The position numbers and the translations under genes are program-made. From a virus, in the UHGV virus genome UHGV-1419557: a stretch of DNA of 22,498 bases; one strand, 5' to 3'. The notes under the pieces are model-generated. The model had not been told where the DNA came from. It was given only the letters and a program-made list of their open reading frames with translations, and made no database searches. This document shows, in pieces, positions 3,043 to 22,498 of the stretch; position 1 is the stretch's first letter; each line of letters begins with the position of its first letter.

Positions 3043-3189
3043 ATATCTGCAGTAAACCGCGCATCGCAGCGCGTAACAATCCCGAGTCTTTCAGAAAGCT
3101 GAGCCTGAGAACTGCCGTATATGGTGGCGACCATCTCGGGGCGGCTTTTCTGTGCGAACAGGCTCATCTTTCTAAAAGGTAAAGACGCA

Positions 3190-4202: not shown

Positions 4203-4204
4203 AC

Positions 4205-4645: not shown

Positions 4646-6057
4646 CCTCGATTAATCCTATCTTTGAACCGTTCATTGAGGCGCATCGCTACAAAGTCGC
4701 CAAAGGCGGTCGAGGTAGCGGTAAATCATGGGCAATTGCGAGACTGCTTGTTGAAGCGGCGCGTCGGCAGCCAGTGCGTATTCTCTGCGCTCGTGAACTG
4801 CAAAACAGTATCAGCGATTCGGTAATCCGGCTGCTTGAAGACACCATAGAGCGTGAAGGGTATACGGCTGAGTTTGAAATTCAGCGTTCCATGATTCGTC
4901 ATCTCGGGACGAATGCTGAGTTCATGTTCTACGGCATCAAAAACAACCCGACGAAGATTAAATCGCTCGAAGGCATTGATATCTGCTGGGTGGAGGAAGC
5001 GGAAGCGGTAACGAAGGAATCATGGGATATCCTGATACCAACCATCCGCAAGCCATTTTCCGAAATATGGGTGAGCTTCAACCCGAAAAACATCCTCGAC
5101 GATACCTATCAGCGATTCGTAGTAAACCCTCCCGATGATATTTGTCTGCTGACGGTGAACTACACCGACAACCCGCACTTTCCTGAAGTTCTCCGTCTGG
5201 AGATGGAAGAGTGTAAACGCAGAAACCCGACACTGTATCGTCACATCTGGCTTGGTGAGCCAGTAAGCGCAAGTGATATGGCAATCATCAAACGTGAATG
5301 GCTTGAAGCCGCAACCGATGCGCACAAGAAACTCGGATGGAAAGCGAAAGGCGCTGTTGTCTCTGCGCATGACCCATCAGATACAGGGCCAGATGCTAAA
5401 GGTTATGCATCGCGTCACGGTTCGGTAGTTAAGCGCATTGCCGAAGGTCTGCTGATGGACATCAACGAGGGTGCTGACTGGGCTACTTCGCTGGCGATTG
5501 AAGACGGCGCTGACCATTACCTGTGGGATGGCGATGGTGTCGGTGCAGGGCTACGCAGACAGACAACGGAAGCATTCTCCGGCAAGAAAATTACCGCCAC
5601 GATGTTCAAGGGCAGCGAATCGCCATTCGATGAAGATGCTCCGTATCAGGCCGGAGCATGGGCTGATGAAGTCGTACAGGGTGACAACGTTCGCACTATT
5701 GGCGATGTATTCCGCAATAAGCGAGCGCAATTCTATTACGCGCTGGCTGACAGGCTGTATCTGACATATCGGGCGGTTGTCCACGGTGAGTATGCAGACC
5801 CCGACGACATGCTGAGCTTCGACAAAGAAGCGATAGGCGAGAAGATGCTGGAGAAACTGTTTGCAGAACTGACGCAGATTCAGCGCAAATTCAATAATAA
5901 CGGGAAACTGGAGCTTATGACTAAGGTCGAAATGAAGCAGAAGCTCGGTATCCCATCTCCTAACCTGGCTGATGCGCTGATGATGTGTATGCATTGCCCG
6001 GAGTCGGCTGCGCAACCCGACTATTCCAGTTACTCAATTCCTTGTGGTGTAGGTTGA
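4642..6057 (+). CDS. Terminase large subunit (P22/Sf6-group headful terminase)
   Basis: 471 aa; Walker A-like KGGRGSGKS near the N-terminus, nuclease-type C-terminal half. Recalled as closest to the Sf6 gp2 type. Confidence 0.95.
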   Translation: MTSINPIFEPFIEAHRYKVAKGGRGSGKSWAIARLLVEAARRQPVRILCARELQNSISDSVIRLLEDTIEREGYTAEFEIQRSMIRHLGTNAEFMFYGIKNNPTKIKSLEGIDICWVEEAEAVTKESWDILIPTIRKPFSEIWVSFNPKNILDDTYQRFVVNPPDDICLLTVNYTDNPHFPEVLRLEMEECKRRNPTLYRHIWLGEPVSASDMAIIKREWLEAATDAHKKLGWKAKGAVVSAHDPSDTGPDAKGYASRHGSVVKRIAEGLLMDINEGADWATSLAIEDGADHYLWDGDGVGAGLRRQTTEAFSGKKITATMFKGSESPFDEDAPYQAGAWADEVVQGDNVRTIGDVFRNKRAQFYYALADRLYLTYRAVVHGEYADPDDMLSFDKEAIGEKMLEKLFAELTQIQRKFNNNGKLELMTKVEMKQKLGIPSPNLADALMMCMHCPESAAQPDYSSYSIPCGVG

Positions 6058-6058
6058 T

Positions 6059-8257
6059 ATGGCAGAAAAAAAGATGACTGACTGGCATCGCAAGGTGCTG
6101 TGCAACTTTGATAATGCCTGGTCAGCAACGCAGGATATGCGTGAGCAGATTATTGAGGCTCAACGTTTCGTCCGGGTATCCGGCGCACAGTGGGAAGGCA
6201 GCACAAACGCTGGTTACTCATTTGATGAAGGCAGGTTTGAGCATTACCCGCGCTTTGAACTGAATAAGATTGCCCGTGAATGTGATCGCATCATTGGCGA
6301 GTATCGACAGAATCGCATCAGCGTTAAATTCAGGCCGAAGGATGACAAGGCATCGGAAGCGTTAGCCAAAAAGATGAACGGCAAATTCCGCGCTGACTAT
6401 CAGGAAACATCAGGTGGCGAAGCGTGTGATAACGCATTTGATGATGCTGTAACGGGCGGATTCGGTTGTTTCCGCATGTGTGCCGATTACGAAGATGAAA
6501 TGGACCCAAGTAACGAGCAGCGACGCATCAGCCTTCTTCCTGTTTACGACCCAGCGACATGCGTCTTCTTCGATCAGGACAGCAAGCAATATGACCGTTC
6601 TGATGCTATGTGGGCTATGGAAATGTTCTCCATGACGCCTAAAGCGTTCGAGGCTGAATACCCTGATTCCATCGCGGCAGGCCTTTCTCGTGATGAGACT
6701 GGCACTCAATATGACTGGTCAACGCCAGATGCCATCTATGTTGGGCGCTACTACGAAGTTCGCATAGAGAAGGTGAAGCTCACGGCATGGCGCAACCCTG
6801 TTAGCGGAGAAACGGCAATCTATGATGAAGAGCAAATCAAAGATATTGTCGACGAGCTGACCGATGGTGCATTCGAACTGATTGGCGAGCGAACGGTGAA
6901 GAAACGCCGCGTTTATTGCGGCCTTCTGTCTGGCGCTGAATGGCTGGAAGAACCGAAGCGTATTCCGGGCGAACATATTCCTCTCATCCCGGTATATGGA
7001 CGTCGCTCATTTGTTGATAATCAGGAACGAATCGAAGGCCACGCAGCAAAAGCGATGGATGCACAGCGTCTTGAGAACCTGATGGTTTCCATGATTGCAG
7101 ATAACGCTACTCAGGCTGGCGGTGATGGCATTCCTGTAGTTGATGTTGACATGATTCCTGGTCCTCTCGCCACTCATTGGGCGGAGCGCAACAAAAAGCG
7201 CCCGGCGTTCCTGCCGATGGTCAGTCTGAAAAACAAAAACGGAGATATTACTGCGCAGGCTCAGGTCAGCAGTTATACGCCTCCGACACAAATGCCTCCA
7301 GCTCTTGCCGGGCTATTGCAGTACACCGGAACGGCTATTCAGCAAATTACAGGTGCGTCGCAGCTTGAGAACATGCCGAGCAACGTTGCTACCGATACCG
7401 TTGATAGCATCTTTAACCGGATGGATACGCAGTCCTATATCTACATGGACAACATGGCTAAATCCATGCGTCGCGCTGGCGTTGTGTGGCTTTCTATGGC
7501 TCGTGAAGTCTATGGCAGCGATACGCCGATGCGTATCGTTAATGAGGACGGCAGCGATGACGTGGCGCTGATGACTGGTGAAGTGGTTGACCGTCAGACA
7601 GGGCAGGTTATCGCGCTTAACGACCTTTCGCAGGGTAACTATGAAGTGACTGTCGATGTCGGTCAGTCGTTCGCTACTCGCCGTGACGCAACGGTTAAGT
7701 CGTTACTTTCCATGCTGGCACTTATCCCGCCCGGAACGCCGAAACACGACCTTGTATCGTCGATGATCCTCGACAATATGGACGGCGAAGGGATGGACGA
7801 CCTTAAAGAATACAACCGCAATCAGTTGCTTCTGTCTGGAGTTATCAAGCCGAGAACGCCAGAAGAACAGCAGATGGTTGAGCAGGCGAAACAACAACAG
7901 GCCAGTCAGCCAGATCCGGCTATGGTTGCTGCGCAAGGTCAGCTTCTTGCTGGTCAGGCTGAATTGCAGAAAGCGCAGAACGAGCAGGCAGCCATTCAGG
8001 TTAAAGCATTCCAGGCACAGACTGATGCTCAGGTTGCAGCGGCAAATGTTGTGAAAATCCTCGCATCTGCCGATAGCCAGCAGAAATCTGATATCCGCGA
8101 GGCTCTGAAACTGCTCGGACAGTTCCAGCAACAGCAAGGAGACAATGCCCGTGCTGATGCAGAGCTTGTCCTGAAAAGTCAGGCACAGGGCCATGCGCAG
8201 CGCATGGACATCAGCAGCATCCTGCAAAAATCAACTCAGCAACAACCACAGCAGTAA
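6059..8257 (+). CDS. Portal protein (P22 gp1 type)
   Basis: 732 aa; conserved core (GEHIPLIPVYG, RRRVY) and the long Q/A-rich C-terminal helical barrel typical of P22-like portals. Confidence 0.95.
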   Translation: MAEKKMTDWHRKVLCNFDNAWSATQDMREQIIEAQRFVRVSGAQWEGSTNAGYSFDEGRFEHYPRFELNKIARECDRIIGEYRQNRISVKFRPKDDKASEALAKKMNGKFRADYQETSGGEACDNAFDDAVTGGFGCFRMCADYEDEMDPSNEQRRISLLPVYDPATCVFFDQDSKQYDRSDAMWAMEMFSMTPKAFEAEYPDSIAAGLSRDETGTQYDWSTPDAIYVGRYYEVRIEKVKLTAWRNPVSGETAIYDEEQIKDIVDELTDGAFELIGERTVKKRRVYCGLLSGAEWLEEPKRIPGEHIPLIPVYGRRSFVDNQERIEGHAAKAMDAQRLENLMVSMIADNATQAGGDGIPVVDVDMIPGPLATHWAERNKKRPAFLPMVSLKNKNGDITAQAQVSSYTPPTQMPPALAGLLQYTGTAIQQITGASQLENMPSNVATDTVDSIFNRMDTQSYIYMDNMAKSMRRAGVVWLSMAREVYGSDTPMRIVNEDGSDDVALMTGEVVDRQTGQVIALNDLSQGNYEVTVDVGQSFATRRDATVKSLLSMLALIPPGTPKHDLVSSMILDNMDGEGMDDLKEYNRNQLLLSGVIKPRTPEEQQMVEQAKQQQASQPDPAMVAAQGQLLAGQAELQKAQNEQAAIQVKAFQAQTDAQVAAANVVKILASADSQQKSDIREALKLLGQFQQQQGDNARADAELVLKSQAQGHAQRMDISSILQKSTQQQPQQ

Positions 8258-8347
8258 TTAACCCATAACGTGCAATGGCTGTCTTTATGAGGCCTGGCAC
8301 CCTATTGCCTTCCGATGGGCTGAACATCGAGTAAACAGGGGTAACAA

Positions 8348-9241
8348 ATGGACCAGATGGCAGAAAACACACCAGAAGTTGAAATCGAAACCGACGCGTC
8401 AGAGCAGATTCCTGATGATGTCGAACTGGCTGAAAAAGTCGAAACAGAAGATGGCAGTGAGTCCTCAGGCAATGATGCAGAGGAGGCTACTGAAACTGAT
8501 GACGACGAATCAGAACAGGAATTCTACTTTGGTGACGAAAAGCTGGATTCGCCAACCAGCGAAGATGGCGCTGAGCATGGACTGGTAAAACACCTGCGCA
8601 AGACGATTAAAGAGAAAGACCGCGAGCTGAAAGAGCTGATGCGTCAGTCTCAGAAACCCGTCGAGCAGCAGCCGGTAATCACTCAACCACCGCGAATGCC
8701 AAAACTGGATGATGAGGACATCGGTTTCGATGAAGAAATCTACCAGCAACGCATGGCTAAGTGGGCAGAGGATAATGGCAAGTACCAGCAACAGGAGATG
8801 GCTCGCAAGCAGAAGGAGCAGGAGCTTCAGGCTGCCTATCAAGAGCGATTATCCAAATATCAGCAACGTGTTAAGGCTCTCAAAGTTCCTGGCTATCAGG
8901 AAGCTGAGCAGGCCGTACTCGAGGAAATCCCCATCGAGACACAAAACGCGATCCTGTTTGAGTCAGAGAAGCCGGAAATCGTTGTTCTGGCGCTTGGTCG
9001 CAACGCTGAACTGCGCAAGCAACTGGCAGAAGCTACCAACCCCGTAGCAATTGGTCGTCTGCTGGAACGTATCGAATCGAAGGCCAGAATCATGCCAAAA
9101 GCAAAAACCACGGCAGCCACAACCCCGACGGTTAAGGGGAGCAACGGCGCAGTAATCAACAACCTCGACAAATTGAAAGCCAAGGCGCTGGAAACTGGTG
9201 ACTGGACGCCGTATTTCGCCGCTAAAAAGGCAAAAAAATAA
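8348..9241 (+). CDS. Scaffolding protein (P22 gp8 type)
   Basis: 297 aa, highly acidic N-terminus, charged helical middle, basic C-terminal helix-turn-helix-like end (KAKALETGDWTPYFAAKKAKK). Located between portal and coat. Confidence 0.8.
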   Translation: MDQMAENTPEVEIETDASEQIPDDVELAEKVETEDGSESSGNDAEEATETDDDESEQEFYFGDEKLDSPTSEDGAEHGLVKHLRKTIKEKDRELKELMRQSQKPVEQQPVITQPPRMPKLDDEDIGFDEEIYQQRMAKWAEDNGKYQQQEMARKQKEQELQAAYQERLSKYQQRVKALKVPGYQEAEQAVLEEIPIETQNAILFESEKPEIVVLALGRNAELRKQLAEATNPVAIGRLLERIESKARIMPKAKTTAATTPTVKGSNGAVINNLDKLKAKALETGDWTPYFAAKKAKK

Positions 9242-9259
9242 CCTATTGGAGCATTAAGC

Positions 9260-10513
9260 ATGGCTAACCAATTAGCAAAAGACCTTGAAATCATGTTCGA
9301 AAACTACGTTGAAGGCTTTGAGGCCGCCTGCGTAGTTTCCCGTAACGCTAAAAAATTCCGTCCCGGTGATACAGCAATGCAGCGAGCAGGTGATGTTCTG
9401 TATCGTCCGCAGCATTACCACATGAATATTGAGGAAGGCCTCGACCTCAGCAGCAAAACGCCAACAGCACTGGTTCAGCGCCTTGTTCCTTCAGTGTTCA
9501 AGGAGCCGAAAAACATTCTGTACACTCTGGATGCGCGTGAAATGCGTGATCCGGAACATAAAACTGAAGCTGGTCGCGCCGCAGGTATGCGCCTTGCTGC
9601 ACAGATTGACTCTGACCTGATTTCCATGGTCACGCAGCGTGCTACTAACGTGATCACGATGGCTGACTCAACCGCAGGTACACAGGGCCGTGATTTGTGG
9701 AACTGTGCGGCAGGTATTGATGCCACCATGACGGCGATTGGTGTACCTCAGGGTATCAACCGTCGCTCTTTCTGGAACCCCTTCAACTACAAAGACCTTG
9801 CTGGCGAGCTTGGTCACCGTGCCTATGCTCAGGGCGCAACCCTGACAGCATACGAAAAAGCGCAAATCCCTCCGGTTGCGTCCTTCGATAGCTACAAGAC
9901 CGATATTTCTGGTCGATTACCGAAAGGAAGCACTGAATCCTTGACAGTATCAGGCCAACCTGAACACAAGGTTGAAGCGAAAGATTCAAATGGTATGCCA
10001 GTTGATAACCGACAGGGGACTATTACGGTATCTGCATCTGGCTTGCAGGTTGGTGATGCGTTCACCATTGCCGGTGTGAATTCCGTACACCAGATCACAA
10101 AAGATACCACCGGTCAACCGCAGGTATTCCGTGTTCTGGCTGTTAGCGGAACTACCGTAACAATTTCTCCAAAGATTCTCCCTGTTGAAAATACTGATGT
10201 TGCGAGTCGTCCATATGCAAACGTCGATGCCAAACCGGCAGAATCAGCAGCAATCACCATTCTCAACAAGAACGCAGCACCTGCTAACCTGTTCTGGGCT
10301 GATGGTTCTGTTGAACTGATGTACGGCAAACTGGCGTTCCCAACTGGTCAGGGTCCACAGGTAATGACAGCAACCACCGAGCAGGGCGCTACGCTGATCA
10401 TGTCTTACTCCTTCGACCACATCAAAGGCGTAACCACTGCGCGTTTCACCACTCTGTACGGTTGCTCTGTACTGGTTCCTGAATATACGGGCATCGTTAT
10501 TGCTGGGCAGTAA
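9260..10513 (+). CDS. Major capsid (coat) protein (P22 gp5 type)
   Basis: 417 aa, SD ggag 8 nt upstream, directly after scaffold and followed by a strong terminator. Size and position match P22-like coat proteins. Confidence 0.9.
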   Translation: MANQLAKDLEIMFENYVEGFEAACVVSRNAKKFRPGDTAMQRAGDVLYRPQHYHMNIEEGLDLSSKTPTALVQRLVPSVFKEPKNILYTLDAREMRDPEHKTEAGRAAGMRLAAQIDSDLISMVTQRATNVITMADSTAGTQGRDLWNCAAGIDATMTAIGVPQGINRRSFWNPFNYKDLAGELGHRAYAQGATLTAYEKAQIPPVASFDSYKTDISGRLPKGSTESLTVSGQPEHKVEAKDSNGMPVDNRQGTITVSASGLQVGDAFTIAGVNSVHQITKDTTGQPQVFRVLAVSGTTVTISPKILPVENTDVASRPYANVDAKPAESAAITILNKNAAPANLFWADGSVELMYGKLAFPTGQGPQVMTATTEQGATLIMSYSFDHIKGVTTARFTTLYGCSVLVPEYTGIVIAGQ

Positions 10514-10520
10514 TTTTGGT

Positions 10521-10541
10521 GGGGCTTCGGCCCCATTTTTA
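10521..10541 (+). terminator. Intrinsic terminator/attenuator immediately after coat gene
   Basis: Perfect hairpin ggggc-ttcg-gcccc followed by ATTTTTA. Confidence 0.7.
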
Positions 10542-10554
10542 TTGGGAGAAGACA

Positions 10555-10743
10555 ATGGCACGAACAATGCTCTATAAGCCAGGCAACATGATCACCTGCG
10601 GTCAGTTTGCTGTCGATTACATCATTGTTGATGACGAAGAAGTTAAATCTCACCTGAAAAAAGGTTGGGTAAAAACTCCTGAAGAAACCGCAACGAAGCA
10701 AAAAGTGGCTAAGGCGGAAGAAGATGGCGAAAACGAAGGGTGA
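10555..10743 (+). CDS. Hypothetical small protein (62 aa)
   Basis: SD gggagaag then ATG at 10555. The longer ORF call from 10516 would start inside the terminator hairpin. Overlaps the gp4-like start by 20 nt. Confidence 0.5.
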   Translation: MARTMLYKPGNMITCGQFAVDYIIVDDEEVKSHLKKGWVKTPEETATKQKVAKAEEDGENEG

Positions 10744-11185
10744 TCTCGTTCTAAAGGCTTTACGAAAAGCCGGGCTGTATTCCAATGCCACGTTGACAGA
10801 TGCTGACCCTCAGGCAATTGAAGATGCCATTAATGACCTCGAAGACATGATGGCAGCATGGCAGGCGAAAGGTATCGAGCTTGGGTATCAGTTTGCTGAT
10901 ACAGAAAACGGCATCATGCCGTTACCTGACGATGATTCAGGCATCCCTGCATGGGCAAATGATGGCGTCGCTTTGAAACTCGCTGTGCAAGTGTGCATGG
11001 ATAACGTCATTCAGCCGTCAGACGCTCTCCTTACCGCTGCTGACAGTGCATATCAGACAATCTGTATCGCTTTAACCAAAATACCACCACTTGAGCGGCG
11101 AAATGACATGCCTCGCGGTAGTGGTAACAAAAGCGCGTTTACGTGGAATCGGTTTTACATCGAGAAAGATGATCCGAGTACGTGA
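10724..11185 (+). CDS. Head completion / packaged-DNA stabilisation protein, P22 gp4-like
   Basis: 153 aa in the position of P22 gene 4 (after coat, before gp10). Confidence 0.75.
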   Translation: MAKTKGDLVLKALRKAGLYSNATLTDADPQAIEDAINDLEDMMAAWQAKGIELGYQFADTENGIMPLPDDDSGIPAWANDGVALKLAVQVCMDNVIQPSDALLTAADSAYQTICIALTKIPPLERRNDMPRGSGNKSAFTWNRFYIEKDDPST

Positions 11186-11194
11186 GGTGAATAA

Positions 11195-12613
11195 ATGCCG
11201 ATTCAGCAACTTCCGCTTATGAAAGGTGTCGGCAAAGACTTTCGAAACGCCGACTATATCGACTATCTGCCAGTGAATATGTTGGCTACGCCCAAAGAAA
11301 TCCTGAACAGCAGCGGATATCTTCGCTCATTCCCGGGCATTGCCAAACGTTCTGATGTGAATGGTATATCGCGCGGCGTCGAGTACAACATGGCGCAGAG
11401 TGCTGTTTATCGCGTGTGTGGCGGCAAGCTGTACAAAGGAGAAAGCGAAGTCGGTGACGTCGCCGGAAGTGGTCGCGTATCAATGGCGCATGGTCGAACA
11501 TCACAGGCTGTAGGCGTTAATGGTCAACTGGTCGAGTATCGTTATGATGGCACGGTTAAAACCGTCTCAAACTGGCCTACAGACAGTGGATTCACGCAGT
11601 ATGAGTTAGGTTCAGTTCGCGACATTACTCGCTTACGTGGGCGTTATGCGTGGTCAAAAGACGGAACTGATTCATGGTTTATCACTGACCTTGAAGACGA
11701 ATCGCACCCTGACCGATACAGTGCACAATATCGCGCAGAATCGCAGCCGGACGGCATCATCGGTATCGGGACATGGCGAGACTTCATCGTCTGCTTTGGT
11801 TCATCGACTATTGAATATTTCTCCCTGACTGGCGCAACCACCGTTGGTGCTGCTTTGTATGTCGCACAGCCATCACTGATGGTGCAAAAAGGCATCGCCG
11901 GAACCTATTGCAAAACGCCATTCGCTGATTCCTATGCGTTCATCAGCAATCCGGCAACAGGTGCGCCGTCTGTATACATCATCGGTTCCGGGCAGGTGTC
12001 ACCAATCGCCAGCGCGAGCATTGAGAAAATTCTTCGCTCCTACACTGCTGATGAACTGGCTGATGGTGTGATGGAGTCTCTGCGATTTGATGCGCATGAG
12101 CTGCTGATTATCCATCTTCCGCGCCATGTCCTCGTATACGACGCATCTTCAAGCGCCAATGCTCCGCAATGGTGTGTACTGAAAACAGGTCTGTATGACG
12201 ATGTGTACCGCGCTATCGACTTCATTTACGAAGGCAATCAGATAACGTGCGGCGATAAGCTGGAGTCCGTGACCGGGAAATTGCAATTCGACATCAGCAG
12301 CCAGTACGACAAGCAACAGGAGCATCTGCTGTTTACTCCTCTGTTCAAAGCGGATAACGCCAGAGTTTTCGACCTTGAAGTTGAATCTTCAACTGGCGTT
12401 GCGCAGTACGCCGACCGCCTTTTTCTCTCTGCAACCACTGACGGCATCAATTACGGTCGTGAGCAGATGATTGAGCAGAATGAACCGTTTGTTTACGACA
12501 AACGCGTTTTGTGGAAGCGAGTCGGGCGCATCAGGAAAAATGTCGGCTTCAAATTGCGCGTTATCACGAAGTCACCTGTCACTCTGTCTGGCTGCCAGAT
12601 AAGGATCGAGTAA
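11195..12613 (+). CDS. Head completion / tail adaptor protein, P22 gp10-like
   Basis: 472 aa, the same length recalled for P22 gp10. Immediately precedes the tail needle gene with overlapping stop/start. Confidence 0.85.
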
Positions 12614-13314
12614 TGGCTGATTCGAATCTCAACACCCCTGTTATTGTGCAGGCGACGCGGCTCGATACATCAATCCTTCCACGCAATATATTCAGCCAGT
12701 CTTACCTGCTGTATGTCATTAATCAGGGGGCTGATGTCGGCGCAATTGCCGGGAAAGCAAATCAGGCTGGTCAGGGCGCTTACGATGCTCAGGTGAAAAA
12801 CGATGAACAGGATGTCGAACTGGCTGACCACGATGCAAGAATCACCGCAAACACAAAAGCGATAAATCTCCTTGAGGTCAGGTTAACAACCGCCGAAGGG
12901 AAGATAGTTGTACTGCGTAGCGATGTTGATTACTTGCTGGATGAGGTTATCGATATTCAGGCGCATCTGGTCACTGTTGACCAAAGACTGGATGGCGTAG
13001 AAAGCGATATATCTGACATTAAGAGTGATTACGTATCGAAAACCGTAACAGAATCGCAGTCTCTTGCGTCACCGCTGGATGTAAAAACATCATATTCAGT
13101 TGATGGAATTCAGGTCGTTGGAGCAAGGCAGACCGGATGGACAGCGGCCACAGGCACACCACTTCTTGGCTCATTCAACGCTAACCAGTCATACACGGTC
13201 GGCACTACGTACACACAATCCGAAGTCGCAGCTATCGCTACAGGTTTGGAGCAGGCGCGGCAGCGTATTCTGGCGCTTGAAACAGCACTTAGATTACATG
13301 GGCTGATTGACTGA
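12613..13314 (+). CDS. Tail needle protein, P22 gp26-like
   Basis: 233 aa from ATG 12613 (overlaps gp10 stop). [77 protein letters not shown]... and C-terminal [13 protein letters not shown] match recalled P22 gp26. Confidence 0.9.
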
Positions 13315-13769
13315 TGATTACATTCAAACCAACGCGAAACATCGACCTGATCGAAGCAGTAGGAAATCACCCTGACATCATCGCCGGGAGCAACAACGGT
13401 GATGGATACGACTACAAACCTGATTGCCGTTACTTTGAGGTGAACGTGCACGGTCAGTTTGGCGGCATTGTTTACTATCAGGAGATTCAGCCGCTTACAT
13501 TCGATTGCCACGCCATGTACCTGCCAGAGATTCGCGGCTTCAGCAAGGAAATAGGGCTGGCGTTCTGGCGATACATTCTGACCAACACCACCGTTCAGTG
13601 CGTCACATCATTTGCTGCACGCAAATTCCGCCACGGGCAGATGTACTGCGCAATGATTGGCCTTAAGCGTGTAGGAACCATCAAGAAATACTTCAAAGGC
13701 GTGGATGACGTGACGTTTTACAGCGCCACACGCGAAGAACTAATCGACTTCCTGAATCACGGGAGATAG
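13314..13769 (+). CDS. Virion-associated protein at the P22 gene 14 position (assignment positional only)
   Basis: 151 aa between needle and gp7, start overlapping the needle stop. No sequence motif recognised. Confidence 0.5.
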   Translation: MITFKPTRNIDLIEAVGNHPDIIAGSNNGDGYDYKPDCRYFEVNVHGQFGGIVYYQEIQPLTFDCHAMYLPEIRGFSKEIGLAFWRYILTNTTVQCVTSFAARKFRHGQMYCAMIGLKRVGTIKKYFKGVDDVTFYSATREELIDFLNHGR

Positions 13770-13771
13770 CC

Positions 13772-14464
13772 ATGTTATATGCATTTACGCTGGGCAGAAA
13801 ACTGCGCGGCGAGGAACCTTATTACCCTGAAAAAGGCGGGAAAGGTGGCAGTTCTGATAAAAGCGCAAAGTATGCAGCAGAAGCTCAGAAGTATGCCGCA
13901 GACCTGCAAAATCAGCAGTTCAACACCATCATGAACAACCTGAAGCTGTTTACTCCTCTGGCTGGGAAGTATGTCGGCAGCCTTGAGAACTTATCGTCTC
14001 TGGAAGGGCAAGGTCAGGCACTTAACCAGTATTACAACTCTCAGCAGTATAAAGACCTTGCAGGTCAGGCTCGCTATCAGAGTCTGGCGGCAGCGGAAGC
14101 AACAGGTGGATTGGGTTCCACCGCAACCAGTAATCAGTTAGCAACAATCGCACCAACGCTTGGTCAGCAATGGCTATCTGGACAAATGAACAATTACAAC
14201 AACCTGGCAAATATCGGTCTTGGCGCTCTTCAGGGGCAGGCAAACGCCGGGCAAACATATGCCAACAACATGAGTCAGATTTCACAGCAAAGCGCGGCTC
14301 TTGCAGCGGCAAACGCCAACCGACCGTCAGCATTGCAGCAGGGTGTTAGTGGTGCTGCATCCGGTGCGCTTTTGGGTGGTGGCATAGCCAGTGCTCTCGA
14401 GCTATCAACTCCGTGGGGTGCTGGTATCGGTGCTGGTCTTGGTCTGCTTGGCTCGTTGTTTTAA
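13772..14464 (+). CDS. Ejection (injection) protein, P22 gp7-like
   Basis: 230 aa, Q/N/A/G-rich low-complexity body with Gly-rich hydrophobic C-terminus. Position and composition match gp7. Confidence 0.85.
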   Translation: MLYAFTLGRKLRGEEPYYPEKGGKGGSSDKSAKYAAEAQKYAADLQNQQFNTIMNNLKLFTPLAGKYVGSLENLSSLEGQGQALNQYYNSQQYKDLAGQARYQSLAAAEATGGLGSTATSNQLATIAPTLGQQWLSGQMNNYNNLANIGLGALQGQANAGQTYANNMSQISQQSAALAAANANRPSALQQGVSGAASGALLGGGIASALELSTPWGAGIGAGLGLLGSLF

Positions 14465-14474
14465 GGGGTAATCA

Positions 14475-15926
14475 ATGGCTACGTGGCAACAGGGTATTAA
14501 TTCTGGTGGGTTTCTGGCTGGCATCGGTACGCAAAATGAGAATGCGCCAAAGGCAAGCGACATTAACGCAACGCTTGGTCTGATCCGCGAAAACAATGAA
14601 CTGGCTCGATCAGGTGCAAATAACGTTGCTCTGACAGGTCTTCGTGGTCTGGCTGGAGTTGCTGATATTTATAAGCAGCAGCAAAAGCAGGAGCGTAAAG
14701 CGGCATTCCAGAAAGGTTATGCGGATGCTTATGCGTCCGGCGACAGGGAGCAGATGCGTAATCTTATTACAGCATTCCCCGAAGAGTTTGAGGAAGTCCG
14801 TAAAGGCATGGGGTATGTCGATGACGCCCAGCGGGATGATTTTGGCAATCTGGCGCTTAAGGCTCAGGTCGCTTCGTCGCTTGGTCCGGGTGCATTTGGC
14901 AGGTTCATGATGGATAACGAAAAGGAGATGCGTCGTTTAGGTATCCCTCCAGAAACTATTGCGGAAATGCAGGTTAATGACCCGCAGGGCTTCCAGCACT
15001 TCGCAGGTAATCTGGCACTATTTTCTCTCGGTCATGAGAAGTATTTCGATATCAAAGATCAAATGGAAGGTCGGGATATTGAGCGTGGCAAGTTGGCAGA
15101 GACGATTCGCAGCAATAAAGCTGGGGAAGGTTTAAAGGCGCAAAGCATTGCTGTTAGCCGTGAAAACTCCCTGCGCACTGCTGGAGGTGCTGTTCCTGCA
15201 TCTGTTAAAGAATATCAATATTTCAACAGCCTGTCTCCAGAGCAACAAAAGACATATCTTCGTGTTCGAGGTCGTCCTGATGCTGGCGGGGAGAATGTTG
15301 TGCAACTGGCAGATGGCAGAACGGTAACGGTTGGTAGGAAGCTTCACGGCGCTGGTGCTAATGCGTTCTACGAAGGAATAGACAACGAGGGCAATATGAT
15401 TCGCGTCCCCGCCAGTTCTATTGCTGCTCCGGCTACATCGGCAGCTAATGCACAGAATTACGAAATGAAGAAAGATCTTGATGCAATTTCTGGCGCATCA
15501 ATTGACGATCTTGGCTTCATGACAGGTATTACAGGTTCTTCAGGTTCTTTTGCTCTTGGTGCAGATATTCGTAGCAGGGCATCTGGTGTTGAGGAGAGGA
15601 GGCTATACAACGCTGCACAGCGAATCATGGGCAAAATGCAAAATCAGGGGATTGCAGCAGCCCGAGATATGGGGGCATCTGGCATCAACACCGAAGCAGA
15701 GGCCAATAGGTATTTTCAGGGTATGCCAAAGCCTGATTTCTCAAGTCCTGAAGCGCTGCAACAATCAATGCGCGACATTCAGCAATATACCGACAATTAC
15801 AACCAGCAATATAACGTTAATGTTGGTAATGGCGGGAAGAAATCATCAAGGCAACAGCCAGCTACTCAGCAATCAGCAGGAGGTAGCTACACGTCAAAAT
15901 CAGGCATTCAATTTACGGTGGAATGA
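14475..15926 (+). CDS. Ejection protein, P22 gp20-like
   Basis: 483 aa following gp7; size and order match P22 gene 20. Confidence 0.85.
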
Positions 15927-17938
15927 TGAAAGTAACTGCAAATGGTAAGACATTTACCTTTCCTGATGGTACGAGCACGGAAGATATTGGGTCCGCCATT
16001 GATGAGTATTTTGCTGGTCAGTCAGCGCCAACACAACAAGGTGTTCAGCAATCGCCAGCAGACAACTCACTTGCATCAGGATATGCACAGCTTGCCACTC
16101 AGCAGAAGGAAGGACTAGATCGCTCTGCTGAGCAAGGGGCTGTTTTAGGTGCTGCAATGCGCGATGCCGTTACCGGTGAAAGCCGAATGACACCAGAAAT
16201 GGAGAGACTGCAAAATGTTGGGGCTGCCCCTGAGTTGAACTCACTAAGCATGGATGCCCTGAAGGCTGGATGGTCTCAACTTTTCGGCTCCGACGCGTCT
16301 CAGGAAAAGATTCTTCAGAGTATGGGGGCGAAATTAAGGCAGGATGAGAAGGGTAACACTATCGTTTCCCTGCCATCCGGTGATTATGCCCTGAACAAGC
16401 CAGGTTTATCACCGCAAGACCTGACTTCGTTTCTTGCTAATGCGTTAGCGTTCACACCAGCGGGCAGGGCTGGAACGGTGCTTGGTGCCATAGGGAAATC
16501 AGCTGCTACAGATTTAGCACTACAGGGTGGCACCAGCCTTGCTGGCGGAGAAGATATTGATCCTGCACAAACGGTAATTTCTGCTGGCATTGGTGGTGTT
16601 GGCAAGGGGCTGGAAAATACAGTTAGTGCGGTTTCCAGGGCTGTTCGCGGTGAGATGTCACCGGAAGCAAAGGCTGCTGTCGATTTTGCGTCGGAAAGAA
16701 ACCTGCCGTTAATGACCAGTGACACGCTGAAAGATAAAACCTTTATGCAGAGTCAGGCTCAGACATTAGGCGAAAGAGTTCCTTTTTTTGGAACCGGTAA
16801 GAATCGGCTGAATCAACAACAAGCACGAGAAAATTTAGTCAGAACATTTAGCGATGGTCTGGGTGGCATTTCTGATAAACAGCTTTATGAATCTGCGACT
16901 AAAGGGCAACAAAAATTCATTGAGGCAGCAGGAAAGCGATATAACCGCATAATTGACGCTATGGGGGATACCCCTGTCGATCTCTCAAACACGGTAAAAG
17001 CTATCGACAATCAGATTGCCGTGTTAAGCCGCCCGGGCAAATCTCAGGATAGAGCCGCGGTAAAAGTCTTGCAGCAATTTAAAGACGATATCACCAGCGG
17101 ACCCAATGACCTGCGTCTGGCGAGAGAAAACAGAACTGACCTTCGAAAGCGGTTCATGAATTCAAACGAGACTGTTGATAAAGACACGCTCCAGAAAGCC
17201 AGCGATATTGTCTACAAGGCATATACAGCGGATATGAAAAAAGCAGTATCCCAAAAACTAGGCTCAGAAGAAGCTGCCAATATGTCTAGGGTTGATCGCT
17301 CATGGGCTAGATTCAATGACATGATGAGAAGAACGCGCGTTCAAAAGGCAATAGCCAGCGGCAAGGCTACACCTGAGGATGTAACAAAACTCGTTTTTAG
17401 CCAAAACCCATCAGAACGTTCTCAGCTTTACAGGCTTCTGGATGACAATGGTAGGCAAAACGCACGAGCAGCCATAGTTCAGAATGCTGTAGATAAGGCG
17501 ACTGATCCGTCTGGAAATATTAGTGTTGAAAAGTTTATTAATGCGTTACACCGGAACAGGAAGCAATCAGCAACTTTCTTTAAAGGCGTACATGGAAAGG
17601 AACTGGACGGCGTTATTAAATACCTCAACGATACAAGACACGCGGCAAAAGCGAACGTTCAAAACTTAAATGGTCAGCAGCTTTATGGATTGTTAGTTGG
17701 TGGTGGCATCATAAACGCAGCAGTATTAGCGGGGATGCTAAAAACGGCTGCGTTTGTTGTTCCTGCTGCTGGTGTCGTAGGAGGAGCTGCGAAGGCATAC
17801 GAAAGCCCTGTTATACGAAATGCCTTGTTACGTCTGGCAAATACGCCAAAAGGTAGCACAGCATATGACAGAGCGATCAGTACGGTCACACAATCGCTCA
17901 CCAGAGTCGCACAGGCATCACAAAAAGAAGCTCAATAA
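15923..17938 (+). CDS. Ejection protein, P22 gp16-like
   Basis: 671 aa, ATGA overlap with gp20, Gly/Ala-rich hydrophobic segment near the C-terminus. Last gene of the ejection cluster. Confidence 0.85.
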
Positions 17939-17943
17939 CTGGC

Positions 17944-17972
17944 AGCCACGGATGGCTAATTTTTATTCTTTG
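17944..17972 (+). terminator. Weak intrinsic terminator after gene 16
   Basis: 5-bp stem agcca / tggct with cgga loop, followed by AATTTTTATTCTTT. Confidence 0.3.
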
Positions 17973-18306
17973 ATCTCGTCCACAGGTAAAGAAGAGCAAT
18001 GGCAAGACAGGAAACAGAGAATAGATAACCTACCTCATATGGTGCGCCAAAAAAATTAGCTATTGATACGGGCAAAAAAGCCGAAGCGATCAGAATTGAA
18101 AGGCAAAAAATAAGCCCAGTAACATAGTTTATTAAACTCTTAAATGAGAAACGTTTTGCTTGATTTACGGTCTCAGCGAGTGATCGCTTAACGATGGATA
18201 AAAGCAAATAGATGGCGACAGTAGCTAATGCCCCTTTCCACCAGTCTGGATATAGTTTTGCGACAATCAGCCCAAGGAAAACCATGATGACAGACTGAGC
18301 ATTCAC
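17956..18306 (-). CDS. Small integral membrane protein (about 4 TM helices), function unknown; candidate superinfection-exclusion-type moron
   Basis: 116 aa with four hydrophobic segments. GTG start with SD aaggagg 5 nt upstream. Convergent with gene 16, divergent from the adjacent + strand operon. AT-rich. Confidence 0.6.
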   Translation of the reverse strand: MNAQSVIMVFLGLIVAKLYPDWWKGALATVAIYLLLSIVKRSLAETVNQAKRFSFKSLINYVTGLIFCLSILIASAFLPVSIANFFGAPYEVGYLFSVSCLAIALLYLWTRSKNKN

Positions 18307-18385
18307 ACCAACCTCCTTAGTTTTGCGCAGGATACCAGATGATGTATAGGAGTGGGAGTAAAGTTAGTCGGTGATAGAACGGTGG

Positions 18386-18414
18386 TTGCATAATGATATC
18401 ACGTGACGTAAACT
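18386..18414 (+). promoter_or_regulatory. Candidate promoter for the two-gene operon, with embedded palindrome TCACGTGA
   Basis: TTGCAT (18386-18391), 17-bp spacer, TAAACT (18409-18414). Perfect 8-bp palindrome TCACGTGA (18399-18406) lies inside the spacer. Confidence 0.3.
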
Positions 18415-18481
18415 TATTGCGCATAGCGTGTATTCAATGGATGCATAGCTATTGATAATCTCCGATAAGAAGGAGGTTTGT

Positions 18482-19048
18482 ATGAGCAATGAGACTAATG
18501 GGATTGATGAAATGTTTAGCTTGAACGCTGCCAAAGCTGGAGTCGCAATAGGTTTGCTATTACAGCAAGCTTCTGCGTTCAGTTGTGAGGTGGTTGTTAC
18601 TGATAACGTTCAGCACGCTTACCATCAATCCTCATTCAGCAGTGAACGGGCTAATGATGAGCTTCATGAGGCGGTGTCTTCGATTAAAGAATTGTCTCGA
18701 ATGCTGAAATACGCTTATCGTGTTCTTGCAAACGCTACCGATGAGAATGTAGACAATGTGTTGTCTATCATTGAACCAGAAAAGTCTCGATTGATAGAGC
18801 ATCAATTGAGAGGACTTGAAGGGGCAATGAAATCGGTATTCAAAGAAGCTTCTGCTGATTTTAAAGAGATCGCAAGAGATATCTATATCGTTGTTGCTGA
18901 TGCCAGATCTGCCGTAACCAACCTGAATAGTCTTATTAAACAACGCTCATGTGTTCCGGTTGTTTTTGATAGTTCCGTAGATATGGCTGGTTTGCGTGCG
19001 CTTGCTGAGCACGGGACTCGTGTGTTTCACTCTGGTAACTTCCACTGA
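18482..19048 (+). CDS. Hypothetical protein (188 aa), first gene of a two-gene operon; candidate partner/antitoxin of the downstream YafO-like protein
   Basis: Strong SD aaggagg 6-7 nt upstream of ATG 18482. Stop is 8 nt before the next start, whose SD lies across this stop. No recognised domain. Confidence 0.65.
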   Translation: MSNETNGIDEMFSLNAAKAGVAIGLLLQQASAFSCEVVVTDNVQHAYHQSSFSSERANDELHEAVSSIKELSRMLKYAYRVLANATDENVDNVLSIIEPEKSRLIEHQLRGLEGAMKSVFKEASADFKEIARDIYIVVADARSAVTNLNSLIKQRSCVPVVFDSSVDMAGLRALAEHGTRVFHSGNFH

Positions 19049-19056
19049 GGTAAAAC

Positions 19057-19506
19057 ATGCAAGTAACCGTGGAATATAATCAGGATAGTTTTGACTATTT
19101 TTTCTCCCCGGTTTTTGTTGAGTTTCCTGATTTAAAACAAACACTTGTAGATGATTTTATCATCTACAAGTCTACGGGAACGTTGCCCAGCTATTTTGGC
19201 AGAGACACCTCTTATCATCGACCTCCTGATATTGAAGATGCAGGCCTTATGCACCTTCATTTAGCAATTGGTGAAAATAAATTTGAGCCAATAAAAAATG
19301 GCACAGATATCAGCACACCGCAAAAGTTGCAGTGGCATAAAACATCCAATACCGCTCTCGTTTATGCACAAAATCTTTTTGATGAGAACAGGTATTCATT
19401 GATTGCTCTTTTTCATCCTGTAGCTCACATGTCTGCTAACAATCATAATAGAATGAGAGTGTTAGCAGGGTATGCGAGAGACTTTAGAAACACTATGTTT
19501 GACTAA
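19057..19506 (+). CDS. YafO-family toxin-like protein (putative ribosome-dependent mRNA interferase domain)
   Basis: 149 aa. DFIIYKSTGTLPSYFGRD ... HLHLAIGEN.F.P ... ALVYAQNLFDEN.YSLIALFHPVAHMSANNHNRM ... FR parallels recalled E. coli YafO (DFISYKRDGVLPDIFGRD ... HIHLANENNPFPP ... HLVYCQGAFDEQAWLLIAILKPEPH ... DNNQM ... FR). Followed by a strong terminator. Confidence 0.6.
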   Translation: MQVTVEYNQDSFDYFFSPVFVEFPDLKQTLVDDFIIYKSTGTLPSYFGRDTSYHRPPDIEDAGLMHLHLAIGENKFEPIKNGTDISTPQKLQWHKTSNTALVYAQNLFDENRYSLIALFHPVAHMSANNHNRMRVLAGYARDFRNTMFD

Positions 19507-19530
19507 ACCCACCGTCAGGTGGGTTTTTTA
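19507..19530 (+). terminator. Intrinsic terminator after the YafO-like operon, possibly partly bidirectional
   Basis: Stem aacccacc / ggtgggtt, loop gtca, then TTTTTT. A-run upstream gives weak reverse-strand potential for the convergent ClpP-like gene. Confidence 0.7.
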
Positions 19531-19554
19531 TAAGGAGTAATCATGATTTACCCA

Positions 19555-20091
19555 TCAAACAACCCACCAGTTTGCCTGATTGGATGCCAGCCTTGCAGTT
19601 TTTATGGAATTAATTATGCCATGCTCAAGAGCCTTGTTAGCATCCAAAATGGTCGAGTCTGCTATCAGGGATGCCCACCTAATATGGGTTCCGATGTCGA
19701 TATTGAACGTCTCAACGAAGCGATCAAGATCGTTATCGAGGCATTTCCCGTACTCTCTCAATCTGGCATGGTCGGCGGCTGGGGAGGCAAAGCACCATAA
19801 TAGAGGATGTAACAGGAATCTTGATAATGGGTTTGCGAAACGTTCTGAGCCAGCCAGGAAAACGATATTAGCTATGGATTCAACATTGCTTATGTTGTGA
19901 GTTCTAACGGTAACAGGGAGTGACTTAAGAAAGTTATACGCAGTAAAGCCAGCAGCAGTTTCCCCTCCCTGACTTGATATATGGATATTTAATTCAGTTG
20001 CGCCTTGAGATAATGCGGTGAGACAGTGGTTCTGAAGTTGCCCAACAGTGGCAGTGTTAACAGGGCATAAGAAATGAATTGTGTGCAGCAT
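19555..20091 (-). CDS. Compact ClpP-like (peptidase S14 / ClpP-crotonase fold) protein, translationally coupled to mnt
   Basis: 178 aa. IHISSQGGETAAGFTAYNFLKSLPVTVRTHNISNVESIANIVFLAGSERFANPLSRFLLHP aligns by eye with ClpP [63 protein letters not shown], with the catalytic Ser and His positions conserved and a candidate Asp downstream. Start ATG overlaps mnt stop (TAATG on - strand); SD aagga upstream. Confidence 0.65.
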   Translation of the reverse strand: MLHTIHFLCPVNTATVGQLQNHCLTALSQGATELNIHISSQGGETAAGFTAYNFLKSLPVTVRTHNISNVESIANIVFLAGSERFANPLSRFLLHPLLWCFASPAADHARLREYGKCLDNDLDRFVETFNIDIGTHIRWASLIADSTILDANKALEHGIINSIKTARLASNQANWWVV

Positions 20092-20339
20092 TATTTTTCA
20101 TCCTTAGCATACATGGTCTTTAGCGTCTCAAGTAGCGCCTCTTTGAATTTATCAGCTTCTTGCTGAGCAAATGACTCAACTGACTTTGGCGACCTATCTT
20201 CATCAATCGCGGCTTGCAAAATCATGACGATCTCGGAGTTAACAGAGCGACCATTTTTTGATGCTCTGACAGCAAGAGCCTCGCGTAAAGATTCAGGGAT
20301 TCTTACCGTAGTTGGAGAAATTGACACACCCTTTGCCAT
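20091..20339 (-). CDS. mnt: Mnt repressor (ribbon-helix-helix, Arc/MetJ superfamily)
   Basis: 82 aa from ATG 20339 (- strand). NGRSVNSEIVMILQAAI motif and ...ETLKTMYAKDEK C-terminus parallel recalled P22 Mnt. Divergent from arc as in P22 immI. Confidence 0.8.
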   Translation of the reverse strand: MAKGVSISPTTVRIPESLREALAVRASKNGRSVNSEIVMILQAAIDEDRSPKSVESFAQQEADKFKEALLETLKTMYAKDEK

Positions 20340-20453
20340 ATAACACCTTTGGTATTCAATTTGATAGCAAAGTGTATGCAAAAAAATTTTGACTAGATAT
20401 ACTCACTTTGCTATCTTTTGTATTCGAAAAGAGTTGTTTGCGTGGAGGGTAAC
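20340..20453. promoter_or_regulatory. mnt-arc divergent control region (candidate Pant/Pmnt and operators)
   Basis: 12-bp inverted repeat arms GATAGCAAAGTG (20363-20374) and CACTTTGCTATC (20404-20415). Candidate Pant: TTGACT at 20389-20394, TATCTT at 20412-20417. Arc SD ggaggg at 20444-20449. Confidence 0.5.
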
Positions 20454-20606
20454 ATGGAGAAAGAAATAAGTAAGATTTTGGTAAGGATGCCGCAGTCGTT
20501 AAAGGATGCTATCGGTAGCAGGGCAAAGGAAGAGTGCAGGTCGTTTAACTCAGAGGTTATCAAGCGCCTGATAGACAGCCTGAAGAGAGAGGGGGTAACG
20601 GTGTGA
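20454..20606 (+). CDS. arc: Arc repressor (ribbon-helix-helix)
   Basis: 50 aa from ATG 20454. ECRSFNSEVIKRLIDSLKREG parallels recalled P22 Arc NGRSVNSEIYQRVMESFKKEG. Upstream of ant as in immI. Confidence 0.8.
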   Translation: MEKEISKILVRMPQSLKDAIGSRAKEECRSFNSEVIKRLIDSLKREGVTV

Positions 20607-20776
20607 TTCGCTTGGATGCAGTAGTCAAAGAGATTGCGATTACCATTTTAAGACCAAATTTTGTTCATGGCGAATCATTTGGCACGAACGAAAAATTGAG
20701 AAGAGAAAGAGTATTCAGTGGCAAGCGCACGTTTTCAGAAGTGATGCTTGATGCGGCAAAGAAATCAAAACAGTGA
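20603..20776 (+). CDS. Possible small ORF (57 aa, GTG start) in the arc-ant spacer; speculative
   Basis: GTG at 20603 overlaps the arc stop (GTGTGA) with SD-like gagggggt 7 nt upstream. Open to TGA at 20774-20776. Lys/Arg-rich product, no known domain. Confidence 0.25.
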
Positions 20777-20842
20777 AGCCCCAACTGCTGGAACAGTCAG
20801 GGCTTCGGTTGTCGGTAAATCCGTGGAGAAAAACCAACATGA
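20758..20842 (-). ncRNA. sar: Candidate sar-like antisense RNA covering the ant ribosome-binding site
   Basis: On the - strand: extended -10 TGCTATACT (complement of 20845-20853) would start transcription near the ant ATG. Hairpin (gaagccc 20775-20781 / gggcttc 20800-20806 plus inner 4-bp stem) followed on the - strand by TGTTTTGATTTCTTT acts as terminator. Predicted RNA about 70-85 nt, antisense to the ant SD and start, as for P22 sar. Confidence 0.35.
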
Positions 20843-21741
20843 ATAGTATAGCAATTTTAGAAGCAGTGAACACCTCTTACGTGCCATTCAACGGTCAGCA
20901 AATTATCACCGCCATGGCTGCCGGAGTTGCATATGTTGCGATGAAGCCAATCGTTGAAAACCTCGGAATGAGCTGGTCAACGCAGCAAACAAAACTCATG
21001 AAGCAGATTAGCAAATTCAACTGTGTTCATATGAACATGGTTGCCGCTGATGGTAAGCTTCGTAAGCTACTCTGCCTTCCTTTGAAGAAGTTAAATGGAT
21101 GGCTGTTCAGCATCAACCCTGAGAAAGTTCGTGCTGACATCCGCGATAAACTGATTCAGTACCAGGAAGAATGCTTTACTGTGCTGCATGACTACTGGAC
21201 AAAGGGAGAGGCAGCAAATGCACGGAAGAAAACATCTGTTGATGACAGGACTCCGCTTCGTGATGCTGTAAATATGCTAGTCAGCAAAAAGCATCTAATG
21301 TACCCAGAAGCTTATGCAATGATTCATCAGCGTTTCAATGTGGAAAGTATTGAAGAGCTTGATGCATCTCAGATACCACAAGCAGTAGAGTACATCCACA
21401 GGGTAGTGCTTGAAGGTGAGTTCATCGGCAAACAAGAGAAGAAAACCAACGAGCTTTCTGCAAAAGAAGCAAACAGCCTTGTATGGCTATGGGATTATGC
21501 CAACCGCTCACAGGCATTATTCCGCGAACTGTATCCGGCGCTAAAACAAATTCAATCGAACTATTCCGGCAGATGTCATGACTGCGGTTATGAGTTCTCC
21601 CGTATTATCGATATGGCGAGAGACGTTTTAATCAATCACACACGAGATGTTGATATCAATGAGCCAGACGGACCAACGAATCTTTCCGCATGGATGAGAC
21701 TTAAGAATAAAGAATTACCTCCTTCAGTACATAATTACTGA
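20839..21741 (+). CDS. ant: Antirepressor Ant
   Basis: 300 aa from ATG 20839. [57 protein letters not shown]... matches recalled P22 Ant. Follows arc and is followed by a terminator and the tailspike gene. Confidence 0.9.
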
Positions 21742-21760
21742 CAGATAACCAACGCAACGA

Positions 21761-21783
21761 CCCAGCTTCGGCTGGGTTTTTTT
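21761..21783 (+). terminator. Intrinsic terminator after ant
   Basis: cccagc-ttcg-gctggg hairpin followed by TTTTTTT. Confidence 0.75.
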
Positions 21784-21841
21784 ATGCCCAAAATTCACCG
21801 TGGCCATGCTGCGGCGATTCTTTGCATCTGGAGCAAATTAA

Positions 21842-22498
21842 ATGACAGACATTACAGCCAATGTGATTGTATCGATGCCTTCGCAACTCTTCACTATGGC
21901 GCGTTCTTTTAAAGCCGTAGCCAATGGCAAAATTTATATCGGTAAAATTGACACTGACCCGGTAAATCCTGAAAACCGGATTCAGGTTTATGTAGAGAAC
22001 GAAGACGGCTCTCACGTTCCTGTTTCGCAACCAATCATCATTAACGCTGCTGGTTACCCTGTATATAACGGACGGATTGCCAAGTTCGTAACTGTGCAAG
22101 GCCATTCTATGGCTGTGTACGATGCGTATGGCGTACAGCAGTTCTATTTCCAGAATGTGCTGAAGTATGATCCTGATCAACTACGGCAGCAATTAGAAGA
22201 CCCAGATGGAGCGAATAAATACCCAAAACTTCAGATAGCAAGATGGAGAGACAGTTATGATGTAAGAGGTTGGGGGGCTATTGGTGATGGTGTTCATGAT
22301 GATACATCAGCTCTATCAGAATTACTTTCTGTTGCAACAGGTGGTGAAAAGATAGATGGGCGAGGGCTTACTTTTAAAGTATCAACTCTTCCAGATGTCA
22401 GTCGATTTAAAAATGCTCGTTTTTTATTTGAGAGAATACCGGGTGGATTTGCCCCTATATTTCCAGACACCTGTTATCACTTAACCCATTACTGGCTT
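21842..22498 (+). CDS. Tailspike protein, 3-prime partial: P22 gp9-type head-binding domain followed by a different receptor-binding domain
   Basis: SD ggag 8 nt upstream of ATG 21842. First ~115 aa ([59 protein letters not shown]...VLKYDPDQ) match recalled P22 tailspike N-terminus. Downstream [15 protein letters not shown] is a pectate-lyase-superfamily beta-helix entry motif. Open to window end. Confidence 0.9.

Follow-up and report, generated by a model that had tools for sequence, protein, structure and literature searches.

A CUS-3-type endosialidase tailspike gene probably interrupted by an IS2 variant in the virus genome UHGV-1419557

The reading frame that closes the virus genome UHGV-1419557 (22,498 nt, the whole of which is called the window below) appears to be the beginning of a known tailspike gene broken by an insertion sequence. 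Positions 21842-22443 would represent the 5' 602 nt of siaK1 from a P22-like Escherichia coli K1 prophage of the CUS-3 type, in the allele of E. coli S88 and APEC O1, interrupted by an IS2 variant after codon 200, and the probability of this reading is put at about 0.92. In an earlier note, made from the letters of the window, the tailspike had been drawn over 21842-22498. The real tailspike sequence ends at 22443/22444, and positions 22444-22498 are an IS2-type end. The features on which this reading rests are collected in Table 1.

Table 1. Features of the window, domains of the intact S88 tailspike (Pfam) and insertion sequences found in siaK1 of other strains
Feature	Location	Strand	Basis
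Putative terminator-like hairpin with T-run, ant/tailspike gap	window 21759..21785	+	consensus scan
P22-type virion-attachment (head-binding) domain, tailspike codons 1-113	window 21842..22180	+	Pfam and PDB matches
Codons 114-145, 32-residue linker with the S88/RS218 allele breakpoint	window 22181..22276	+	nucleotide differences between alleles
Endosialidase N-terminal extension, profile positions 1-56 of 67 (codons 146-200, +2 nt)	window 22277..22443	+	PF12218
Terminal 55 nt of the IS2 variant (right inverted-repeat end, as reverse complement)	window 22444..22498	-	55/55 to L001
Head_binding (PF09008), S88	residues 1-113		E=3.8e-64
End_N_terminal (PF12218), S88	residues 146-212		E=2.9e-37
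End_beta_propel (PF12217), S88	residues 213-662		E=1e-233
End_beta_barrel (PF12195), nested in the propeller, S88	residues 324-406		E=1.2e-46
End_tail_spike stalk (PF12219), S88	residues 663-817		E=6.7e-78
Peptidase_S74 chaperone (PF13884), S88	residues 818-878		E=2.8e-10
IS2 variant in siaK1 of GPEC128-620	gene nt 1283-1287		L001:5430-6760
IS3-family element with AL1L pseudoknot in siaK1 of FY26	gene nt 943-945		L007:2446-3755
ISEc52-family element in siaK1 of SF-088

The origin of the gene was traced by nucleotide comparison. Over 21700-22444 the window shows 100% identity with a gene annotated as 'phage tailspike protein' in E. coli S88, in APEC O1 and in many K1 ExPEC/APEC chromosomes, and over the longer interval 15700-22444 a single mismatch in 6745 nt separates the window from S88. 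In its entirety the window represents a P22-like prophage. Phage CUS-3 (CP000711, from the K1 strain RS218) matches the interval 124-14678 at 99.8% identity, and its later match also ends at 22444. In the CUS-3 record the orthologue is named siaK1, 'endosialidase tailspike protein', with direct-assay evidence which the record attributes to PMID 16689790, and it is followed by the heptanucleotide-repeat locus neuO, int and attL. The layout in S88 is the same and is continued by a tRNA-Arg gene, so that neuO, the integrase gene and the argW attachment site lie downstream of the tailspike in both S88 and RS218; the position of the S88 neuO between the endosialidase gene and int has also been reported (PMC8653822). 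CUS-3 had been listed in the earlier note among the phages to be compared with this tailspike, but the gene of the window is itself of the CUS-3 type.

The tailspike reading frame begins with ATG 21842 on the plus strand, with GGAG at 21830-21833 upstream of it, and is open through the end of the window, giving 219 codons. It is preceded by ant (20839-21741), and the putative hairpin in the gap between the two genes falls inside a conserved inter-module 'boundary sequence', annotated as bsq1 in the CUS-3 record, directly upstream of siaK1. The gene closes a P22-like morphogenesis cluster as its last virion gene and stands after ant/immI. Its N-terminal part was correctly recognized in the earlier note as a P22-type head-binding domain. 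The profile PF09008 (Head_binding) is matched by residues 1-113 in its full length (profile 1-113/113, E=4e-65, 217.6 bits against a cut-off of 24), and residues 1-118 correspond to the solved N-terminal domains of the P22, Sf6 and HK620 type with PDB E values from 1e-44 to 1e-66, among which Sf6 gp14 (7SG7) matches at E=1.7e-66 and the P22 gp9 N-terminal domains (2VKY/1LKT), as well as 8EB7, at 1e-44 or below. The VLKYDPDQ linker, which had been proposed as the end of this domain, occupies residues 106-113 (22157-22180), and this is also the place where the similarity of most other prophage tailspikes stops.

Behind the linker region the protein enters an endosialidase module. PF12218 (End_N_terminal, 'N terminal extension of bacteriophage endosialidase') is matched by residues 146-201 over profile positions 1-56 of 67, with E=2.5e-29 and 101.2 bits against a cut-off of 26.3, the match being truncated by the IS. 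Moreover, residues 145-202 align with the crystallised endosialidases of K1F (1V0E, 3GVL) and phi92 (4HIZ) over the initial ~58 residues of these, at E of about 1e-14, the counterpart in K1F endoNF 3GVL being residues 5-62. The general form of the chimera proposed in the earlier note, in which a P22-type anchor is joined to a non-P22 receptor module for another surface polysaccharide, is thus borne out by PF09008 followed by PF12218. What the complete protein looks like can be seen from the intact S88 tailspike of 981 aa (WP_000129907.1), which matches K1F endoNF (3GVL/1V0E) at E=0 over residues 145-817, phi92 4HIZ at 2e-273 and the structure of the K1F chaperone domain 3GW6 at 2e-93. With respect to the family of GH58-type endo-N-acetylneuraminidase tailspikes, the reading frame of the window contains the PF12218 extension with its GDG motif, while PF12217, PF12195, PF12219 and PF13884 are missing from it and are all present in the S88 allele. 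The gene of the window would therefore be classed, judging by its sequence, as an endosialidase tailspike by descent, but a disrupted one.

The point of disruption was located by a three-way alignment. The window follows S88 through ...ATACCGGG(T), in the longer form ...GAGAGAATACCGGG(T), and then departs: from 22444 it reads TGGATTTGCCCCTATATTTCCAGACACCTGTTATCACTTAACCCATTACTGGCTT, where S88 has instead CAGCCTCTTTTTTATG..., and an uninterrupted siaK1 frame across the site would read ...ATACCGGGTCAGCCTCTTTTTTATG.... The tailspike sequence ends at this point, after codon 200, with G201 kept by the common T, and the last 18 residues of the window translation are IS-encoded and do not belong to the tailspike. 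The tail of the window is identical in 55 of 55 nt to L001:5430-5484, the end of an IS in strain GPEC128-620. The complete element in that strain measures 1331 bp, is flanked by 5-bp CTCCT direct repeats, encodes an IS3-family transposase with programmed frameshift (orfA/orfB) and shows 97.7% identity to IS2A of K-12 MG1655 over 1331 bp (30 differences). Compared directly with the reverse complement of the right end of K-12 IS2A, the window tail agrees in 50 of 55 positions, and the 55 visible nt carry the IS2 terminal inverted repeat. Since this tail corresponds to the right end of IS2 in reverse complement, the element lies antisense to the tailspike gene. The statement of the earlier note that the enzymatic domain is cut off by the end of the window has to be corrected accordingly, as the IS cuts the gene 55 nt earlier, and truncation by the window end alone was ruled out by the alignment with the intact S88 gene and by the IS end.

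The IS end itself is widespread: among 5,426 complete E. coli genomes, 3,826 contain it, at about 10,000 places altogether, with the annotation 'IS3 family transposase'. The junction with the tailspike was found in none of the same 5,426 genomes. For a simple insertion, the predicted right junction would lead from the opposite IS2 end (...GATTCAGGGGGCCAGTCTA) into CCGGGTCAGCCTCTTTTTTATG / CCGGGTCAGCCTCTTTT..., and exact-pattern scans of the GTDB species representatives, the JGI metagenomes and IMG/VR returned neither the exact left junction nor this predicted right one. Several apparent occurrences were rejected. Two matches with coverage of at least 80% are chance flank matches of 90% identity beside pcoS; IS matches which extend upstream to 22419-22434, and could be taken for a different boundary, are likewise chance flank matches (90-97% identity) chosen by the coverage ranking; and the copy in GPEC128-620 is not the same junction, as there the same IS2 variant lies 685 bp deeper in the gene. 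A literature search on IS in prophage endosialidase genes, covering titles and abstracts, gave no report of the insertion seen in the window.

Three other explanations were weighed against simple insertion. The one contained in the earlier note, which takes the gene for an intact chimera with a beta-helix receptor part of new specificity and ascribes its truncation solely to the window's end, is extremely improbable. It was derived from the 15-residue GDG-motif stretch (residues 144-158, 22271-22315), which had been taken for a pectate-lyase-superfamily entry motif, and its GDGxxDDT part does give a sub-threshold match to the rhamnogalacturonase/pectate-lyase-like profile PF12708 (13.4 bits against a cut-off of 27, E=0.068, 23 residues only) and weak matches to the beta-helix glucanases 5M5Z/3EQN (E=0.002-0.4 over ~25 residues); the same motif also stands ahead of non-endosialidase domains in two other prophage tailspikes (L008, L009). 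However, the same residues reach 101 bits with the endosialidase N-terminal extension, and a pectate-lyase-superfamily depolymerase was rejected on this comparison, all beta-helix matches in the PDB having E of 0.002 or higher. In the alignment with K1F endoNF, K1F shows SAKGDGVTDDTAAL opposite this stretch, and therefore the motif lies where the endosialidase fragment starts and does not introduce a pectate-lyase beta-helix. Furthermore, the gene to which the DNA shows 100% identity goes on to encode a beta-propeller endosialidase, the Pfam search of the intact S88 allele gave no match to a beta-helix family, and the sequence departs at 22444 into the IS2 end and not at the end of the window. 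The earlier reading of the motif was not wholly unfounded, because the DVRGWGAxGDGxxDDTSAL stretch also occurs in other prophage tailspikes, where it precedes unrelated non-endosialidase domains, and this partly explains why it had been linked to other depolymerase folds.

The two remaining alternatives concern the IS end and what lies behind it. That the IS2 end at 22444-22498 arose during assembly, through misextension of a contig into a repeat, and that the tailspike is in reality intact, is very unlikely. Such an origin would agree with the location of both window ends in multi-copy IS elements (1-126 and 22444-22498), as for a short-read contig, and with the absence of the junction from all other public sequence searched, so that it rests on one sequence. 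Contigs, however, usually end in repeats that truly abut unique sequence, and the joint coincides exactly with the canonical terminus of IS2, TGGATTTGCCCC. Only one base (T22444) is common to the tailspike and the IS at the joint, which disfavours a misjoin through k-mer overlap, and closed genomes contain true IS interruptions of the same gene at other sites. It is unlikely as well that the IS2 copy marks a more extensive rearrangement or a deletion, such as IS-mediated loss of the 3' part of the tailspike gene, neuO, int and attR. At the opposite window end rus is cut short by a second element of the IS3 family, which makes recombination between IS copies conceivable, and the window stops 55 nt into the IS; in the closed genomes of GPEC128-620 and FY26, on the other hand, both halves of the gene flank the IS with target duplications, as results from simple insertions. 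Under simple insertion of the IS2 variant into siaK1, the 3' remainder of the gene would follow behind the IS together with neuO and int, and CCGGG (22439-22443) would be the target duplication.

The second IS lies on the minus strand of window 1-126, where the terminus of an IS3-family element with TGAACCGCCCCGGG ends was found, the prophage junction being at 124-126. This terminus has 98.4% identity with the IS found in the tailspike gene of FY26 (L007:3630-3755). Homology to CUS-3 sets in at 124, within rus, a Holliday-junction resolvase gene that has lost its first ~52 codons. As each end of the window lies in an IS element, the window probably corresponds to a short-read contig delimited by repeats.

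The consequences of the insertion can be outlined from the intact allele, for which the mechanism is established knowledge of P22-like tailspikes and endoNF. In the intact spike, residues 1-113 would plug the trimer into the tail hub, and residues ~146-981 form the endosialidase, composed of the extension, a six-bladed propeller with the inserted barrel, the stalk and an intramolecular chaperone. The C-terminal chaperone domain of the endoNF type drives trimer folding and is then released. The intact endosialidase would bind and cleave the alpha-2,8-polysialic-acid K1 capsule, by which the virion would reach the outer membrane. Transposition of the IS2 variant into siaK1 after codon 200, in antisense orientation, would leave a frame of 200 tailspike residues running into IS sequence and reaching a stop after about 259 aa, provided that the IS matches the L001 copy beyond the window. 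The propeller, barrel, stalk and chaperone domains would no longer be translated with the spike. The truncated product is predicted to be unable to degrade the capsule, and any particles carrying it would not infect K1 cells. The other virion genes of the window, namely the upstream set of terminase, portal, scaffold, coat, gp10-, gp26- and gp14-like genes, the ejection proteins, arc/mnt and ant, are intact, with 98-100% identity to CUS-3/S88 proteins and no frameshifts. With these genes intact, the prophage may still build particles, which would be spike-defective, and K1-infective particles can probably not be produced from this copy.

The insertion is an ordinary kind of prophage lesion, and the gene has been hit more than once. 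Five of the 60 closest complete-genome copies of siaK1 are IS-interrupted, at sites other than that of the window; NCTC11151 and MS20654 carry an IS3-family AL1L-pseudoknot element with the same 4259-bp span as FY26, and the other interrupted copies are given in Table 1. At least three other IS insertions in siaK1, by at least three different elements, can be counted elsewhere, and the insertion in the window is a further independent IS event in a repeatedly interrupted gene. Counted together, the window, GPEC128-620, the FY26 group and SF-088 give at least four sites and three IS types. On this basis it may be speculated that the repeated insertions reflect selection in K1 ExPEC/APEC, by which the capsule-degrading spike is silenced and the prophage immobilised while neuO, a locus for capsule acetylation, is kept, although this idea is regarded as rather doubtful. 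If it were true, prophage domestication would be aimed at the receptor-destroying enzyme and would not be neutral decay.

The comparison of alleles and strains also shows where the gene is assembled from its modules. Complete E. coli genomes with a match to siaK1 number 1166, of which 181 match over at least 80% of the length and about 985 have only the head-binding part in common; most sampled partial matches stop at gene nt ~334-339 (codon 112-113), at the end of VLKYDPDQ, and the nucleotide similarity of HK620 and Sf101 ends at window 22176-22179. The siaK1 genes of S88 and RS218 CUS-3 (L003:26316-29261) differ at 29 nt, all within gene nt 27-361 (window 21868-22202), with 0 differences in the 2585 nt from 362 to 2946. 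This distribution points to a clean recombination breakpoint between the two alleles in the linker just after VLKYDPDQ, and the head-binding domain goes with the upstream virion/immI module and the endosialidase with the neuO/int side. The pattern agrees with window 14679-21408, which is unlike RS218 CUS-3 and identical to S88. That segment of ~6.7 kb, which holds ejection-protein genes and immI/ant and has no nucleotide match to RS218 CUS-3, also contains a YafO-family type II toxin gene at 19057-19506 (plus strand) and a ClpP-like protease subunit gene at 19555-20091 (minus strand), both according to the RefSeq annotation of S88. They resemble moron-like cargo placed between the ejection genes and arc/mnt.

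The endosialidase module was also found outside this context. E. coli SCU-125 encodes a 1039-aa endosialidase (L006:2803-5922) whose catalytic part has 99.5% nucleotide identity from siaK1 nt 522 on and whose N-terminus is an unrelated stretch of 204 residues with no Pfam domain. This gene belongs to a different prophage and adjoins holin and GH19 endolysin genes, and by sequence it appears to be the K1-capsule module on a second virion adaptor. The opposite combination is represented by the tailspikes of strains 100248 and C4, in which the head-binding domain, the linker and a DVRGWGAKGDGITDDTSAL-type motif are as in CUS-3 and are followed by non-endosialidase domains. In the prophage tailspikes L008:3001-5151 and L009:3001-5418, the parts resembling CUS-3 are the head-binding domain, a 14-residue linker stretch and the DVRGWGAKGDGITDDTSAL-type motif; their central domains gave no Pfam match, and a Peptidase_S74 chaperone domain closes L009. 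These two tailspikes suggest a second joint of recombination directly behind the GDG motif.

Summarizing, the chimera of a P22 anchor and a K1F-type endosialidase is a textbook case of tailspike module exchange, and finding it again adds nothing new. The annotation of the reading frame should read disrupted (pseudogene) CUS-3 endosialidase tailspike and not novel beta-helix depolymerase. When prophages are mined for depolymerases, contig ends should be checked for IS termini before a domain is called truncated.

Among known systems, the closest to the gene of the window is the S88/APEC O1 allele (WP_000129907.1), with which its first 200 codons are identical in both protein and DNA, whereas they differ by 6 aa from siaK1 of CUS-3 in RS218 (ABQ88383.1 / CAJ29292.1). 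The context of ant, boundary sequence and tailspike is the same as in CUS-3, as are the P22-like virion genes upstream. In CUS-3, however, siaK1 is intact, whereas the gene of the window is broken by IS2 after codon 200 and retains in frame the head-binding domain and linker together with 55 residues of the endosialidase N-terminal extension. The inserted element ends in the IS2 terminus TGGATTTGCCCCTATATTTCCAGACA... and is a variant, with 5 terminal differences in 55 nt from K-12 IS2A (IS3 family); the L001 copy is full-length and has a 5-bp target duplication. With P22 gp9, Sf6 gp14 and HK620 the tailspike of the window has the head-binding domain in common up to VLKYDPDQ, and no similarity of the window/S88 spike to the tailspikes of P22, Sf6 and HK620 was detected past residue ~118 in the PDB comparison. 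The receptor-binding parts of these three phages are right-handed parallel beta-helices with endorhamnosidase or endo-N-acetylglucosaminidase activity. The P22-anchor/endosialidase chimera of CUS-3 was reportedly described, as an enzymatically active protein, by Stummeyer and colleagues in 2006. The tailspikes of CUS-3, HK620, Sf6 and P22 possess a common N-terminal domain and the domain responsible for catalysis in CUS-3 is an endosialidase, which in K1F is carried by an N-terminal adaptor of the T7-tail-fibre type and not by the P22 head-binding domain (PMC5380687, which cites Stummeyer et al. 2006 for the relationships of the CUS-3 tailspike). The combination of P22 anchor and endosialidase is therefore already known and well studied, and the catalytic domains present in K1F endoNF and in the phi92 endosialidase are absent from the reading frame of the window.
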